From contig JBAZBK010000009.1 in NCBI GenBank assembly GCA_041671505.1, positions 1 to 64,000 of the forward strand: DNA of 64,000 nucleotides. Direction: 5' to 3'. This document shows, in pieces, positions 41,414 to 57,128 of the stretch (its first letter is position 1; each line of letters opens with the position of its first letter). The notes under the pieces are model-generated. The model was given only the letters and a program-made list of their open reading frames with translations. It made no database searches and had not been told where the DNA came from. The DNA comes from Thermoanaerobaculia bacterium. Lineage in GTDB: Bacteria; Acidobacteriota; Thermoanaerobaculia; Gp7-AA8. A program made the translations under genes and the position numbers.

Positions 41414-41465
41414 GCGATTGATGATACCTCGGGAGCGCACCGCCTGCCGAGGCGGGTCCTGTTCT

Positions 41466-41563
41466 CAATTCTCCATTCTCCAGTCGACATTCTTCATTTC
41501 GGTTCTCCAGCTCACTCGAAAACCGAAATGAAGAATGTCGAATGGAGAATGAAGAATGAAGAA
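41466..41563. repeat. Heptamer-repeat palindromic intergenic element E1 (GAATGAA family).
   Basis: The left arm is cattctccattctccagtcgacattcttcatttcgg and the right arm is ccgaaatgaagaatgtcgaatggagaatgaagaatgaagaa. The arms are reverse complements with 2-3 mismatches and share the core CCGAAATGAAGAATGTCGAATG with E2, E3 and E4. Confidence 0.75.
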
Positions 41564-44165: not shown

Positions 44166-44279
44166 GGGGTAATGGTAGTTTGTTGATCGTATTTGTCAAG
44201 AATGAAGCGTGAGGGTGGGCTGGGATGCGATGCATAAGGCGAGGCCGGCAGTGAGAATGAGACGAGACAAGCGGCGAGA

Positions 44280-44410
44280 GAAGAGAAACGAGAGAAGAGA
44301 GAAGAGTTAAGAGAGAAGAGTTAAGAGTTGGGGGTTGGCGGGAGCGCACCTGAGAAGGAACGGGTGGCAAACTCTTAACTCTTCTCTCTCAACTCTTAAC
44401 TCTTCTCTTT
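44280..44410. repeat. Heptamer-repeat inverted repeat (GAGAAGA and GTTAAGA units) overlapping the 3' end of the Rrf2 gene.
   Basis: The left arm is gagaagagttaagagagaagagttaagagtt and the right arm is aactcttaactcttctctctcaactcttaactcttctc. The spacer of about 45 bp is gggggttggcgggagcgcacctgagaaggaacgggtggca. Confidence 0.7.
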
Positions 44411-44883
44411 TCTAGCTTCTCTCGTCGTTGCCTTTCCGCTCGCACTTCCACCCGATGCCGTGCCCGCGCCGCCCGCCCCTCCTCCGCCACCATGTCCGCG
44501 AGCGTCTTCGCCTCGAGCAGCTCGGCGACGACGTCGCGCACCTCGCGCATGAGGGCCGAGAACGCGGGCGACGCCTCGAGCGGCGTCGGCTGGTAGAAGT
44601 TCTTCGACGCGCTCCGGACCGGCGCGAGAGGGCCATCGACCGCGCGGACGACATCGGCGATCGAGATCTCCGACGCGTCCATCGCGAGCTTGAAGCCTCC
44701 GTCGGCGCCGCGCCGCGACACGAGAAAGCCGGCGCCCGTCAGCTTGCGGAGGATCTGCTGCAGGAACGGCGCCGGGATCGTGAAGCGCTCGGTGATGTCG
44801 TGCGTCTTGCACCACCCCTCGCTCGCCTCCGCGATCGCGAGAAGCGCAAGGCAGCTGTACTCGCTGGCGACCGTCATTCGCAT
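44389..44883 (-). CDS. Rrf2-family transcriptional regulator (IscR/CymR-like).
   Basis: ATG 44883 (MRMTVASEYSCLALLAIAEA). The winged-helix region reads HDITERFTIPAPFLQQILRKLTGAGFLVSRRGADGGFKL. An unusual basic C-terminal tail, RQRREKLEKRRVKS, is encoded inside the repeat element. Confidence 0.8.
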   Translation of the reverse strand: MRMTVASEYSCLALLAIAEASEGWCKTHDITERFTIPAPFLQQILRKLTGAGFLVSRRGADGGFKLAMDASEISIADVVRAVDGPLAPVRSASKNFYQPTPLEASPAFSALMREVRDVVAELLEAKTLADMVAEEGRAARARHRVEVRAERQRREKLEKRRVKS

Positions 44884-44960
44884 GGGGGCGATTGTGGGGG
44901 AGGGGGGGTGGGGGGTCAAGTTGACGGGAGATATGAATTGAATGGCACGTCAGCCCGAAA

Positions 44961-45081
44961 CCGAAATGAAGAATGTCGAATGAGGAATGAAGAATTGAGA
45001 AAAGGGGCCGTGGTCGTCGTCACGGCCGGGCATGCGCCTTTTCTTCATTCTTCATTCCTCATTCGACATTCTTCATTTCGG
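44961..45081. repeat. Heptamer-repeat palindromic element E2 (GAATGAA family) with a central GC hairpin.
   Basis: The arms are ccgaaatgaagaatgtcgaatgaggaatgaagaattgag and cttcattcttcattcctcattcgacattcttcatttcgg. The centre is aaaaggggccgtggtcgtcgtcacggccgggcatgcgcctttt, containing the hairpin ggccgtg...cacggcc. Confidence 0.75.
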
Positions 45082-45128
45082 TGCCCGCGCGGCTACACAT
45101 GATCATCGTTACCGGCGAGAAACGTGCG

Positions 45129-46004
45129 TCACTTCACATGTCCCCGCACAAACCCCGCCACCCTCTCGAAGTACGCGTTCCCTCCAACCTCCGTCAGGTC
45201 GTTGTGGTCCGCGCCATGAATGACCAACATCTCCTTCGGCCCTTCGAGCGCGGCGTAGAGCTCCTTGCCGCAGGCGAAGGGGATGATCGTGTCGGCGTCG
45301 CCGTGGATGACGAGCACCGGCACGCGGGCGCGGTTGAGTGAGCGCGCGGTCGGCAGGGAGTTGCCGAGGAGGTAGCCCAGGGGCTTGCGGTAGGCGTTGT
45401 TCGCGACGCTTGCGGCCGAGGGGAACGAACTTTGGATCACGACACAGCGGACGCTGCGGTTCGCTGCGACGTCCGCGGCGTAGGCTCCGCCGAGCGATTC
45501 TCCGTAGAGCGCGATGCGTTCGGCCGGCGCGCCGAGCGTCGTCCGCGCGTAGTCGTAGACCGCGAGACCGTCGACGTAGAGCTTCGACTCGCTCGGAGAG
45601 CCTTCACTCTTTCCGTAGCCGCGGTAGTCGAAGAGGAGCACCGAGATTCCGCGCCGCTCGAGCTCTTCCGCGGTATCGGCGCGATGCGACAGGTTTCCTC
45701 CGTTGCCATGAAAGAAGATCAGCAGCGGCGCGTCCGCGTCCTTTGCGGAGAAGAGCCACGCGTGGAGCTTCAGGCCGTCAGGCGTCGTGATGATGTGCTC
45801 GGTCGGTCTGGGCTCGAGCGCGCTCACGTCCCAGTTTCCGGTGGGGTACTTGTCGGGAAAGAAGAGGGTGCTCCGCTTCATCACGTTGACGAGGGCCCAG
45901 AGGAGGGCGGTGACGACGAAGAGCCAGAGAAGAGCCTGCGCCGCGAGGCGGGGGGGGGGGGGGGGGGGGAGGGCGAGGAGGGCGAGCATCGGCGGTTGGA
46001 TCAT
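45129..46004 (-). CDS. Alpha/beta hydrolase (BAAT/hydrolase_4-like) with an N-terminal membrane anchor.
   Basis: ATG 46004 (MIQPPMLALLALPPPPPPRLAAQALLWLFVVTALLWALVNV), or alternatives at 45989 or 46142. Hallmarks are HGNGGN, the nucleophile elbow GESLGG, and C-terminal HGDADTIIP...HGADHND. Confidence 0.75.
   Translation of the reverse strand: MIQPPMLALLALPPPPPPRLAAQALLWLFVVTALLWALVNVMKRSTLFFPDKYPTGNWDVSALEPRPTEHIITTPDGLKLHAWLFSAKDADAPLLIFFHGNGGNLSHRADTAEELERRGISVLLFDYRGYGKSEGSPSESKLYVDGLAVYDYARTTLGAPAERIALYGESLGGAYAADVAANRSVRCVVIQSSFPSAASVANNAYRKPLGYLLGNSLPTARSLNRARVPVLVIHGDADTIIPFACGKELYAALEGPKEMLVIHGADHNDLTEVGGNAYFERVAGFVRGHVK
45951..45969. repeat. Homopolymeric G19 tract (poly-C on the coding strand) in the N-terminal coding region of the hydrolase.
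   Basis: Nineteen consecutive G residues are read directly from the sequence. On the minus strand they encode PPPPPP between the candidate start codons and the transmembrane helix. Confidence 0.9.
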
Positions 46005-46038
46005 ACGTACGCTCTTTGATTCCAAGGCCAGATTGAGA

Positions 46039-46153
46039 ACCGAAATGAAGAATGTCGAATGCGGAATGAAGAATGAAGAAAGTGGGCGCGAGAAGTCAGT
46101 GAAGCCGGCGAACTTCTCCATTCTGCATTCCGCATTCGACATTCTTCATTTCG
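46039..46153. repeat. Heptamer-repeat palindromic element E3 (GAATGAA and GAATGCG units).
   Basis: The arms are ccgaaatgaagaatgtcgaatgcggaatgaagaatgaagaa and ttctccattctgcattccgcattcgacattcttcatttcgg. Confidence 0.75.
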
Positions 46154-46199
46154 GTTTCTTCGCGAGTCTCGAAATGATAGGTCGAGGGCGAAAAGCGCC

Positions 46200-46991
46200 C
46201 TACTTCTTGAACTTCGACTTCAGTCGCTCTCTCGCGATCTCGTCGATCTGCGCGAGCAGCGGTGAAATGAGCTCCCGCTGCTTCGCGACGAGCTGCTCGA
46301 TCCCCCCCTTCGCCAGGGCGATCATCGCGGTCATCTCCTCTTCGCTGAAGCTCCCTTTTTCGGCGGTGCCCTGCAGCTCGATGAACTTCATCGCGTCGGT
46401 CGCCACGATGTTCATGTCGACCTCGGCGGTCGAGTCTTCGCTGTAGTCGAGGTCGAGGTACGGCATGCCGTGATGGATGCCGACGGAGACCGCGGCAACC
46501 TGCGAGCGCACCGGCCAGTTCACCATCTTCTTGTTGAGGTAGATCTTCCCGAGCGCGAGGACGAGCGCGACGTAGCCGCCGGTGATCGACGCGCAACGCG
46601 TGCCGCCGTCGGCCTGGATCACGTCGCAATCGATGATCACCGTCCGCTCGCCGAGCGCCTCCTGGTCGATCGTGCCGCGAAGCGCGCGTCCGATCAGGCG
46701 CTGGATCTCGAGCGTCCGGCCTCCCTGCTTTCCTTTCGCGGCCTCGCGCTGATTCCGCTCATTCGTCGCGCGCGGGAGCATGCCGTACTCGGCGGTGACC
46801 CAGCCCTTGCCGCTGCGGAAAAGGAAAGGAGGAACCTTGTCCTCGATCGACGCGGTGCAGATGACGCGCGTGTCGCCCATTTCGATCAGGACCGAGCCTT
46901 CGGCGTGCTTGTTGAAGTCGGGGCGGATGACGACGGGCCGGAGCTCGTCCGTTGCGCGCCCGCCGGAGCGGGCCTTGGGGGAGGTTGTCAT
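46200..46991 (-). CDS. rph: Ribonuclease PH.
   Basis: ATG 46991. Motifs are [47 protein letters not shown] and [12 protein letters not shown]. The product is 263 aa. Confidence 0.9.
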
Positions 46992-47027
46992 GGGGACCTA
47001 TATAGATGAGATTGCGGTTGGTTGGAA

Positions 47028-47275
47028 GGGCGATTGCTGAATGCGGATTGCAGAATGCGGAATGCGGAGTGAAATGCGGAATTCGGATTGCGGAATGCGG
47101 AATGGGAATGCGGCCGGTGAACCGAAATGTCGAATGTTGAATGAGGAATGGAGAATGTAGAAAGGGGAGTACGGCAAGTCCGAGGTCAGTCTCCTTTCTT
47201 CATTCCTCATTCTTCATTCGACATTCGACATTTCGGTTCTGATTCTGCCTTTCATTCCGCATTCCCACTTCCGCA
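47028..47275. repeat. Composite heptamer-repeat palindromic element E4. Outer arms are GAATGCG x8 and CCGCATTC x3; inner arms are the CCGAAATGTCGAATG family.
   Basis: The left outer arm is gaatgcggattgcagaatgcggaatgcggagtgaaatgcggaattcggattgcggaatgcggaatgggaatgcgg. The inner IR pairs accgaaatgtcgaatgttgaatgaggaatggagaatg with cattcctcattcttcattcgacattcgacatttcggtt. The right outer arm abuts or overlaps the glgC stop. Confidence 0.75.
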
Positions 47276-48508
47276 TTACTCCAGAACCGTCCCCTTCGGA
47301 ATCACGACGATGCCCGACTCGGTGACGGTGAAGCGCTGGCGGTCGGCCTCGAGGTCGTAGCCGATCGTCATGCGGGGAGGGATCTTCACGCCCTTGTCGA
47401 TGATTGCGCGCCTGATCCTCGAGTGGCGGCCGATCTCGACGCCGTCCATCAGGATCGAGCCTTCGACGTCGGAGAACGAATGGATGCGCACCTTCGGCGA
47501 GAGGATCGACCGGTTGATGACGCCGCCCGAGATGATGACCCCCTCGGCGACGAGCGAGTTCGTCGCGCGGCCGATTCGCTGCGGCTCGTCGAAGACGAAC
47601 TTCGCCGGCGGCAGGTTCAGCCACGCCGAGCGGAGCGGCCACTGCGAGTTGTAGAGGTTGAACTTCGGCGAGATGGAGATCAGGTCCATCGACGCCGTGT
47701 AGTACGAGTCGATCGTTCCGACGTCGCGCCAGTAGCCGCGCGCCTCGGCTTCCTCGCCCGGAACGACGTTCGTCCCGAAGTCGTACGCCATCACCTTCGC
47801 CTCCCCGTACATCTGGGGAATGATCTCCTTGCCGAAGTCGTGCGCCGAGTCGCGCAGCGCGTTCGATTCGAGAACGTCGATGATCGCGCTCGCCTTGAAG
47901 ATGTAGTTGCCCATCGAGGCGAGCACCTCGTCGGGACGGCCGGGGATCGTCTTCGCCCCTTCCTTCGGCTTTTCGACGAAGCCGGTCACGCGGAACGAGT
48001 CGTCGATCTCGATGACGCCGAACTGGTTCGCCTCGGCGAGAGGAACGGGAATCGTCGCGATCGTCAGGTCGGCGTCGGTCTCCAGGTGGAAATCCATCAT
48101 CTGCGCGACGTCCATCTTGTAGATGTGGTCGCCGCCGAAGACGCAGACGTGCGTCGGCTTCTCGTCGAAGATCAGCTCGAGGTTCTGGTAGACGGCGTCG
48201 GCCGTGCCGCGGAACCAGAAGGGCCCCTTGCGCATCTGCGCGGGAACGACGTCGACGTACTGGCCGATCTCCGCGGAGAGGCGCCAGGTGCGCGAGATGT
48301 GCTCGATCAGCGAGTTCGACTTGAACTGTGTGAGGACCTTGACCTTGTAGAAGCCGGAGTTGACGAAGTTGTTGAGGACGAAGTCGATGATCCGGTAGCG
48401 GCCGCCAAACGGCACCGCGGGCTTCGCGCGATCGCGCGTGAGCGGATAGAGCCGCTCGCCCATTCCGCCGGCGAGCACCATCGTCAGCGTGTTCCGGTAT
48501 GTCTGCAT
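47276..48508 (-). CDS. glgC: Glucose-1-phosphate adenylyltransferase.
   Basis: ATG 48508 (MQTYRNTLTMVLAGGMGERLYPLTRDRAKPAVPFGGRYRIIDFVLNNFVNSG). The full-length GlgC pattern includes FRGTADAV and the left-handed beta-helix C-terminus. Confidence 0.9.
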   Translation of the reverse strand: MQTYRNTLTMVLAGGMGERLYPLTRDRAKPAVPFGGRYRIIDFVLNNFVNSGFYKVKVLTQFKSNSLIEHISRTWRLSAEIGQYVDVVPAQMRKGPFWFRGTADAVYQNLELIFDEKPTHVCVFGGDHIYKMDVAQMMDFHLETDADLTIATIPVPLAEANQFGVIEIDDSFRVTGFVEKPKEGAKTIPGRPDEVLASMGNYIFKASAIIDVLESNALRDSAHDFGKEIIPQMYGEAKVMAYDFGTNVVPGEEAEARGYWRDVGTIDSYYTASMDLISISPKFNLYNSQWPLRSAWLNLPPAKFVFDEPQRIGRATNSLVAEGVIISGGVINRSILSPKVRIHSFSDVEGSILMDGVEIGRHSRIRRAIIDKGVKIPPRMTIGYDLEADRQRFTVTESGIVVIPKGTVLE

Positions 48509-49643: not shown

Positions 49644-49673
49644 CGGGGATGGTGGGAGGGCCGCAGGGAGGAG

Positions 49674-49830
49674 TTGTTAGTTTTTAGTTGTTAGTTGTTA
49701 GACGGGAATGGCAGGCCGCGACTTCTTCCTGACAACGCAGCTACCGGCGACCTCCATCCTCTTCCCAACGCGGGTCGAATCCTTCAGCCAGCGCAGACTG
49801 TCTAACAACTAACAACTAACAACTAACAAC
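49674..49830. repeat. Heptamer-repeat palindromic element E5 (GTTGTTA units). Near-perfect 31-bp inverted repeats flank a 95-bp spacer and abut the downstream gene's ATG.
   Basis: The left arm is gttgttagtttttagttgttagttgttagac (49674-49703) and the right arm is gtctaacaactaacaactaacaactaacaac (49799-49830). Confidence 0.8.
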
Positions 49831-49833
49831 TGC

Positions 49834-50705: not shown

Positions 50706-51479
50706 ATGAAAGTCTCCTTCCTCGGCACCGGCACTTCCACAGGCGTTCCGACTGTCGGATGCCGCTGCAGGGTCTGCACGTCGACGAATCCTAAGAACGT
50801 GCGGTTCCGGCAGTCGATCAGGATCGAGGCGAAGGGAAAGCACATCCTCGTCGACACGACGCCCGACCTCAGGACGCAGCTGCTGCGCGACCCGATCCCG
50901 CGGCTCGACGCGGTGCTGCTGACGCACTCGCACTCCGACCACGTGATGGGGCTCGACGACATCCGCCCCTTCAACTTCTTCCAGCGCGAGACGATCCCCG
51001 TCTATGCCTCGCCTCCGACGGCGAAGGCTGTGCGTCGCGCCTTCAGCTACATCTGGGATCCGCACGCGCAGATCGGCGGCGGCAAGCCGCAGATCGACCT
51101 TCGCGAGATCGACGGGCCGTTCGATTTCTACGGCATCGACATCGTCCCGATCCCCGTCCGCCACGGCGACTGGACGATCCTCGGGTTTCGCATCGGCCCC
51201 TTCGCCTACATCACCGACACGAACGGCATCCCCGAGGAGTCGCGACGCCTGTTGGAAGGAGTCGACACGATCGCGCTCGACGGCCTCCGGCCCGCGCCAA
51301 CGCACCCGACCCACTTCACCATCGGCGAGGCGGTCGAGGAGGCGAAGGCGATCGGCGCGCGCAAGACCTGGCTCATCCACATGAGCCACGACGCGGAGCA
51401 CGAGGAAGTGGATGCTGGGCTTCCTGCGGGCATTTCGCTCGCGTACGATGGCCTCGAACTCGTCTTTGACGAGAATTGA
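50706..51479 (+). CDS. MBL-fold metallo-hydrolase (PhnP/GPP-like phosphodiesterase family).
   Basis: ATG 50706 (MKVSFLGTGTSTGVPTVGCRC...). The metal-binding HSHSDH motif is present. The product is 258 aa. Confidence 0.8.
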   Translation: MKVSFLGTGTSTGVPTVGCRCRVCTSTNPKNVRFRQSIRIEAKGKHILVDTTPDLRTQLLRDPIPRLDAVLLTHSHSDHVMGLDDIRPFNFFQRETIPVYASPPTAKAVRRAFSYIWDPHAQIGGGKPQIDLREIDGPFDFYGIDIVPIPVRHGDWTILGFRIGPFAYITDTNGIPEESRRLLEGVDTIALDGLRPAPTHPTHFTIGEAVEEAKAIGARKTWLIHMSHDAEHEEVDAGLPAGISLAYDGLELVFDEN

Positions 51480-51594
51480 AAATTGAAAATTGAAAAACAA
51501 ACATCCAATACGGCTTGTTAATATGAAAGGTAGTTTTGGTACATTGATATGAATCCTGCACGTTTTTCAATTTTCAATTTTCAATTTTCAATTC
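51473..51594. repeat. Heptamer-repeat palindromic element E7 (GAATTGA and AAATTGA units) with an AT-rich centre. The left arm overlaps the upstream stop codon.
   Basis: The left arm is gaattgaaaattgaaaattgaaaa and the right arm is ttttcaattttcaattttcaattttcaattc. The AT-rich centre is caaacatccaatacggcttgttaatatgaaaggtagttttggtacattgatatgaatcctgcacg. Confidence 0.8.
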
Positions 51595-57090: not shown

Positions 57091-57128
57091 AGAAGAAGAA
57101 TCGAGAATTGAGAATTGAGAATTGAGAG
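57091..57128. repeat. GAATTGA x4 heptamer arm (E11), the left outer arm of the composite element upstream of pepQ.
   Basis: gaagaagaatcgagaattgagaattgagaattgagag. Its inverted partner E12 is at 57447..57474. Confidence 0.7.

Follow-up and report, generated by a model that had tools for sequence, protein, structure and literature searches.

Repeat-driven switches in other bacteria

To our knowledge, SSR phase variation is known almost only from host-adapted bacteria. Among these, Bordetella pertussis has a high-GC genome. Its ORFs contain tracts of G8 to G11 (in tcfA, G9; in bapC, G11; and in BP3651) that occur in mixed lengths within single colonies of 1e7 cells, and the tracts, of 8-11 bases, also vary among 90 strains and affect surface or virulence proteins of this host-restricted pathogen (PMC1891110). 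More generally, SSR tracts mutate 100 to 10,000 times faster than the basal rate, and a 2025 review requires of a phase variable locus that the change occur at a single locus, that it be reversible, and that the switching rate be detectable (PMC11868660). Campylobacter jejuni and Neisseria meningitidis carry tens of poly-G/C tracts, usually of 8-13 bases, that are conserved across strains and lie mostly in surface-modifying genes (PMC8355987, PMC5084427, PMC6321876). In Listeria monocytogenes, the 5' poly(A) tract of inlA (about 7 bases) changes at a frequency about 1000 times the point-mutation rate, and homopolymers are biased to the 5' ends of genes, where inactivation is most efficient and reversible and the truncated product is very short (PMC2831843, PMC3315296).

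Here we analyze a 64,000-base stretch of DNA (the window) from a Thermoanaerobaculia bacterium that contains an uninterrupted run of 20 C on the coding strand of an alpha/beta hydrolase gene. This tract resembles those of B. pertussis in that the genome is high in GC, the G/C run is in a coding region, a one-base change would truncate the product, and the tract differs between related species. In contrast to those tracts, it has 20 bases, it lies in the gene for a generic hydrolase, and it comes from an uncultured environmental bacterium and is known from one sequence. As in the contingency loci of C. jejuni and N. meningitidis, where slipped-strand mispairing switches translation, the G/C homopolymer is near the 5' end of the ORF, but the window has only one such tract in its 64 kb, and no orthologue shares it. 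It shares with inlA a position within the first few codons. However, the inlA tract is A/T and its frequency has been measured, whereas this one is G/C and is known from sequence alone. Finally, the tract encodes six consecutive prolines near the N-terminus, which recalls the polyproline stalling that is relieved by EF-P. In natural polyproline motifs, the proline codons are mixed and the protein sequence is conserved, whereas the tract here is pure CCC and is not conserved.

A run of 20 G/C bases within the first codons of a hydrolase gene

The original prediction for this region was a G19 at 45951-45969. A very long G homopolymer is indeed present, but direct counting gives 20 bases, beginning at 45950 (Table 1) and bounded on the + strand by a C at 45949 and an A at 45970. 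The exact count matters because C20 keeps the upstream ATGs in frame, whereas C19 would not. On the coding strand, the tract provides the third base of Leu12 (CTC), all of Pro13-Pro18 (each CCC), and the first base of Arg19 (CGC). It thus spans codons 12-19 of 291, in a short tail directly before the single membrane helix. This agrees with the expectation of a poly-Pro stretch, encoded on the minus strand, in the N-terminal region.

The run is far beyond chance, as had been claimed. Under a first-order Markov model of the window, whose G+C content is 65.8%, the expected number of G or C runs of at least 20 bases is about 5e-8, and no other homopolymer in the 64,000 bases is longer than 7, a length that six runs reach. 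Across 167 other metagenome or MAG loci (514,604 bases), there is no G/C run above 8 and no run of any base above 9. Within the 64 kb, a homopolymer count and TRF found no second long repeat at the 5' end of any gene, so there is no sign of a phase-variable gene repertoire.

The tract adjoins a perfect 9-nt tandem duplication. When aligned, the counterpart of this duplication in one orthologous locus (L084) is imperfect (CTCGATCTC CTCGATATC). The N-terminal tail of the hydrolase as a whole is low-complexity, slippage-prone DNA.

Table 1. Coordinates of the hydrolase gene, its tract, and surrounding features in the window.
Feature	Position	Strand	Basis
RNase PH (rph), upstream of hydrolase	46200-46991	-	Pfam
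Long hairpin, 43-nt arms 95% complementary, 7-nt units	46038..46156		Between rph stop (46200) and hydrolase start
Alpha/beta hydrolase CDS, 291 aa + stop	45129..46004	-	Pfam, 100% protein match, dN/dS
Alternative in-frame ATG start (MLALLAL...)	45987..45989	-	Gapless alignment to annotated start of L084/P0007
Perfect 9-nt tandem duplication (CTCGCCCTC x2, encodes LALLAL), adjoins C20	45968..45986	-	TRF
C20 mononucleotide tract (G20 on + strand)	45950..45969	-	Direct base count
Single hydrophobic membrane-anchor helix LAAQALLWLFVVTALLWALVNVM (predicted), codons 20-42	45879..45947	-	Kyte-Doolittle; kept in orthologues
GTGATGAAG (Val41-Met42-Lys43; GTGATGA)	45876..45884	-	Sequence read
Rrf2 regulator, downstream of hydrolase	44389-44919	-	Pfam

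The hydrolase and its conservation

The tract lies in a minus-strand ORF (45129-46142). The 291-aa product from the ATG at 46004 is identical to NCBI MFA6956283.1 ('MAG: alpha/beta hydrolase [Thermoanaerobaculia bacterium]'), from a 195,269-bp contig that is recorded under JGI/IMG too. The protein matches the Pfam families Hydrolase_4 (PF12146; 1.8e-19, 70.4 bits, gathering cut-off 27) and Abhydrolase_1 (PF00561; 1.2e-15, 58.2 bits, gathering cut-off 25.8). Its catalytic motifs, GESLGG (168-173, with S170), HGDAD (234-238), and GADH (264-267, with H267), align to SMGG, IHGDSD, and GGDH of PDB 8b4u, a solved alpha/beta hydrolase. Residues 20-42 form the sole strongly hydrophobic stretch (Kyte-Doolittle mean of 2.3 over 19 residues). 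So, in line with the original prediction, the product is a predicted membrane-anchored serine hydrolase with the alpha/beta hydrolase fold. A specific enzyme assignment was considered and rejected: none of the NCBIfam equivalogs reaches its cut-off (the similarity is generic and far below), and sequence searches of the PDB also give generic alpha/beta hydrolase similarity only, the closest solved relatives being generic esterases.

The gene has been under purifying selection. Over the 273 codons after the tract, a length equal to that in the orthologous locus L001, dN/dS against nine orthologues is 0.16-0.32. The intact length and these ratios imply that the gene is functional, or was until very recently.

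Consequences of tract length for translation

Both of the predicted start codons, ATG 46004 and ATG 45989, exist upstream of the tract and are in frame. The orthologues L163 and L164 (M-P-P-x-T...) favor ATG 46004, and L084 and L165 favor ATG 45989; the choice between them leaves the frameshift argument unchanged. The public gene calls differ, with NCBI giving 291 aa from ATG 46004 and JGI giving 330 aa from ATG 46121. The latter ATG falls within the intergenic hairpin, and the orthologues have no start that corresponds to it.

To obtain the products of other tract lengths, we rebuilt the region in a simulation with tracts of 14 to 26 bases. Lengths of 14, 17, 20, 23, and 26 alone join an upstream ATG, GTG, or TTG to the helix and the catalytic domain, and the off-frame lengths give peptides of 35-75 aa. 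Specifically, lengths of 19 or 22 give 35-41 aa, depending on the ATG used (from ATG 46004, the stop comes after 40-41 codons), and lengths of 18 or 21 give 69-75 aa (from ATG 46004, after 74-75 codons). So a gain or loss of one base breaks the frame between the candidate starts and the catalytic domain, as had been proposed. We also considered whether alternative starts in the other two frames could rescue translation and rejected this, as the open stretch upstream of the tract contains no ATG, GTG, or TTG in either of these frames.

In the frame of C19 and C22, translation would end just after the membrane helix, at a TGA that shares bases with the ATG of Met42 (UGAUG). Judging from this arrangement, re-initiation at Met42 could possibly yield an enzyme that lacks its anchor. 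The sequence GTGATGAAG is kept in the orthologous loci L001, L002, L003, and L167.

The original prediction also allowed that translation might start downstream of the tract, which would place the run in the promoter or 5' UTR, where it would tune transcription and not the frame. A possible start is present in the GTG-ATG pair of Val41-Met42 (45884-45879). Also on this side, a scan of 44900-47300 with the sigma-70 consensus, which tells little for Acidobacteriota, found no promoter-like site nearby. But a start at Met42 would lose the membrane helix, which is conserved in sequence and position in close orthologues; the helix residues right after the tract (RLAAQALLW...) are kept in all of these. 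Furthermore, no ATG, GTG, or TTG occurs in frame from the tract to Val41-Met42 at the helix end, these close orthologues all have their annotated starts upstream of the homologous site, and the N-terminal codons before the tract have homologues in L084, L163, and L164. Given the conserved helix and the lack of an internal start, we consider this reading very improbable and essentially excluded.

The tract site in relatives

We compared 11 orthologous DNA loci (L001, L002, L003, L083, L084, L085, and L163-L167). All 11 have a C-rich but interrupted stretch at this site, with runs of at most 4, that encodes x-R-P-P-L (the sequence in L001 is ACCCGCCCACCCCTCCGC). Similarly, the nearest proteins, which share 89% to 67% identity, all have the sequence x-R-P-P-[LFAM]-R-[LFI]-A here and not polyproline, and none of 121 homologous proteins (excluding the window's own) has more than three consecutive prolines anywhere. 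The repeat is thus not kept at the same site in any of the 11 loci, the nearest of which is at dS 0.32 and none of which is from within the species. As the tract is missing from the 11 loci and the 121 proteins, it is lineage-specific. Also, as no orthologue has a homopolymer, there is no sign that a switch has been maintained over the long term. According to the original prediction, reads of a single fixed length together with short, interrupted tracts in orthologues would have spoken against a switch, as would a true start downstream of an untranscribed tract; the part on orthologues is what we found, and the downstream start was not borne out. The short, interrupted stretches argue against a conserved, evolved switch but not against a hotspot in this lineage.

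The alignment to L084 is gapless from the ATG onward (ATGCTCGATCTCCTCGATATCTCCGCCCGCCCGCCCCTGCGC vs ATGCTCGCCCTCCTCGCCCTCCCCCCCCCCCCCCCCCCCCGC): C20 is exactly as long as the homologous segment, and the two differ at six positions, each a change from a non-C base to C. The N-terminal tails of other orthologues vary by one to four codons.

As for closer relatives, no protein with at least 90% identity was found in a collection of 15 billion sequences besides two gene calls on the source contig, and these two calls make up the 90% cluster of the hydrolase protein. DNA scans of metagenome_contigs and genome_contigs returned relatives with at most 80% identity, and the source contig was not among them. 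An index of contigs, queried by exact protein, listed neither of the two gene calls.

If the tract is real, then it could matter through the protein or its translation instead, with the hexaproline before the membrane helix acting as a rigid spacer or throttling synthesis in an EF-P-dependent manner and with length changes being rare or irrelevant. It is well established that, without EF-P, ribosomes stall on stretches of at least three prolines. Also, the orthologues conserve R-P-P exactly here, so prolines are tolerated or wanted at this site, and the assembled tract is in frame in a gene under purifying selection. However, if the amino acids alone mattered, then we would not expect the C bases of the flanking Leu and Arg codons, nor that 6 of 6 proline codons would be CCC, which makes up 38% of the proline codons in four local genes (P ~0.003). 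The exclusive use of CCC points to a repeat at the DNA level and not to selection for polyproline. The lack of more than three consecutive prolines in any of the 121 homologues is also against a role for hexaproline, as is the instability of G/C runs far under 20 bases in every organism tested (PMC1891110). Overall, we think that such a role is improbable.

Could the tract be an artefact?

Another possibility, which the original prediction raised as well, is that the true stretch is shorter, interrupted, or of some other length, so that G20 is spurious or materially mis-measured. This could arise from two-color chemistry that is prone to poly-G, from the error correction of reads, or from the mis-measurement of homopolymers by long reads; we consider an artefact by such routes to be somewhat unlikely, but it is the main rival to our preferred reading. 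The source is a metagenome-assembled genome, and the tract is known from one contig only. Also, the relation to L084, with the same length and six substitutions, fits a collapse in base calling and not a simple expansion by slippage. Homopolymer calling worsens with length on both Illumina and long-read platforms (PMC11140927), and the true length could differ from 20.

Several observations argue against an artefact. First, the surroundings of the tract are in order. Its 3' flank (CGCCTCGCGGCGCAGGC) is identical in L001 and L002, its 5' flank (ATGCTCG..CTCCTCG..) matches L084, and the reading frame is preserved. The gene order is retained as well, as L001 has rph before the hydrolase and L163 has the Rrf2 gene after it. 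We therefore rejected a chimeric poly-G junction: with both flanks aligning unbroken to orthologues and the rph and Rrf2 order retained, the tract is not a chimeric join. Trailing poly-G artefacts in reads produce contig ends or chimeric joins. Second, the absence of a comparable run from 514 kb of other metagenome or MAG contigs implies that such artefacts are not common in assemblies like these. Third, in the same neighborhood, the rph gene has a C7 run on the + strand (G7 in the coding direction) and its ORF is intact across this run, at 263 aa, as in L001, so shorter runs were called correctly. Fourth, miscalls on the G strand would presumably be contradicted by reads from the C strand. 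Fifth, errors in long reads usually shorten homopolymers and do not create them.

The assembly method may also be informative. The standard JGI workflow uses PCR-free NovaSeq reads and metaSPAdes with k = 33-127 (10.1101/2020.09.30.320929). If this workflow was used, then k was at least 33, which exceeds the tract, so reads must span the tract and its flanks. We also considered that a longer run might have collapsed in the de Bruijn graph to k-1. A run of 20 would fit k = 21 in one convention and does not fit the JGI values of 33-127; as the JGI list of k-mers may not be that of this sample, we keep this explanation as a caveat.

Neighboring genes and intergenic hairpins

Beyond the genes in Table 1, a GlgC-like nucleotidyl transferase and an NMT1-like binding protein are encoded further out on the hydrolase strand (by Pfam). 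Two other readings of the tract region were tried and rejected. On the + strand, the two ORFs that cross the tract and could encode poly-Gly have no Pfam match and overlap the conserved hydrolase. A structured RNA was rejected because no Rfam family reaches the gathering threshold in the whole window and the C20 is predicted to be unpaired in the fold of the 5' region (45930-46200; −109 kcal/mol, z = −8.8).

The hairpin between rph and the hydrolase is one of many. In this part of the window, nearly every intergenic gap has an AT-rich hairpin whose arms are tandem arrays of 7-nt units (at 41462-41563, 44276-44404, 44960-45082, 46038-46156, 47035-47277, 49672-49831, 51474-51593, and 57097-57127). 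The heptamers vary by locus (AATGAAG, GAGAGAA/AACTCTT, TGCGGAA, AGTTGTT/CTAACAA, AATTGAA/TTTTCAA, and AGAATTG), and the hydrolase gene has one such hairpin on each side. In the orthologous loci, the gap between rph and the hydrolase holds one of two types of palindrome, which is either GC-rich (GCGGAAGCGAAGCTTCCGC...GCGCAAGCTGCGCTTGCGC) or an AT-rich heptamer type as in the window. (The comparison was of L001 at 1210-1340, L002 at 1-105, L003, and L083, upstream of the hydrolase start, with L084, L085, and L163-L166.) The first 10-15 codons of the hydrolase vary along with the palindrome type, so the 5' end of the gene has been remodeled together with the intergenic element.

The window also has an interrupted C-rich stretch (C6-A-C7-T-C5) at 44894-44916 on the minus strand, a few bases upstream of the probable ATG of Rrf2 (at about 44883). 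It opens with the hexamer TTGACC and resembles the interrupted hydrolase tract of the relatives.

A candidate frameshift hotspot

What, then, is the tract? Our analysis gives roughly even chances that it is a real mononucleotide repeat of recent origin, acting as a hotspot for slipped-strand frameshifts. We propose that, in this lineage, C20 replaced the interrupted C-rich segment that encodes x-R-P-P-L in the relatives. As C20 lies between the start codon and the anchor and catalytic domain, it would be a hotspot for frameshifts by slippage. Cells with tracts of 17, 20, or 23 bases would make the full enzyme; 19 or 22 bases would lead to a stop after about 40 codons, and 18 or 21 bases to a stop after about 75 codons. 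If so, we expect expressing and non-expressing cells to coexist in the population. The tract, its position, its effects on the frame, its absence in relatives, and the purifying selection on the gene were observed here; the behavior of known G/C tracts leads us to infer that a 20-base G/C run would be hypermutable in this organism and that cells would really differ. Among the observations that weigh against a hotspot are that there is a single consensus sequence and that the length is identical to that of the L084 segment, which a hypermutable tract need not have kept.

Two secondary effects are also conceivable. An EF-P-dependent pause of the ribosome would be expected at the six prolines, and RNA polymerase may slip on the run.

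How does the proposed frameshift hotspot relate to the described switches? SSR phase variation involves a G/C run of about 8 or more, and this run is an uninterrupted 20; such repeats lie in the ORF near its 5' end, where changes in length that are not multiples of three abolish the product, and this is the placement here. These are structural prerequisites only, and as read from the DNA, the tract is a candidate for switching. Loci of this kind also encode products under fluctuating selection, such as surface structures, phage receptors, or restriction-modification systems; here the product is a predicted membrane-anchored serine hydrolase.

Being a hotspot would not make the tract an evolved contingency locus. 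In that stronger reading, C20 would stochastically toggle the hydrolase in free-living, uncultured Thermoanaerobaculia, and it might also be a localization switch, in that, in one of the off-frames, re-initiation at the Met42 UGAUG would give a cytoplasmic enzyme without an anchor. We think that this is quite unlikely. The hydrolase is generic and is not an obvious surface antigen or phage receptor. As the tract is absent in relatives, there is no second tract in 64 kb, and the product is nondescript, we lean towards a young accident, tolerated in an N-terminal tail that is dispensable, over a selected contingency locus.

Implications

The hydrolase is ordinary whichever reading is true, and as its product is so nondescript, the biological pay-off is limited until a substrate or a phenotype is identified. 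If the tract is an artefact, then it usefully cautions those who screen MAGs automatically for phase-variable genes. If it is real and varies in length, then it would show the birth of such a repeat from an ordinary C-rich coding segment for Arg-Pro-Pro-Leu. If it is an evolved contingency locus, then SSR phase variation would extend to an environmental phylum. More broadly, the tract is a possible addition, in an unusual lineage, to the well-known class of phase-variation repeats, and if it both exists and varies, few other documented cases of on/off switching by a repeat would stand beside it in uncultured environmental Acidobacteriota.
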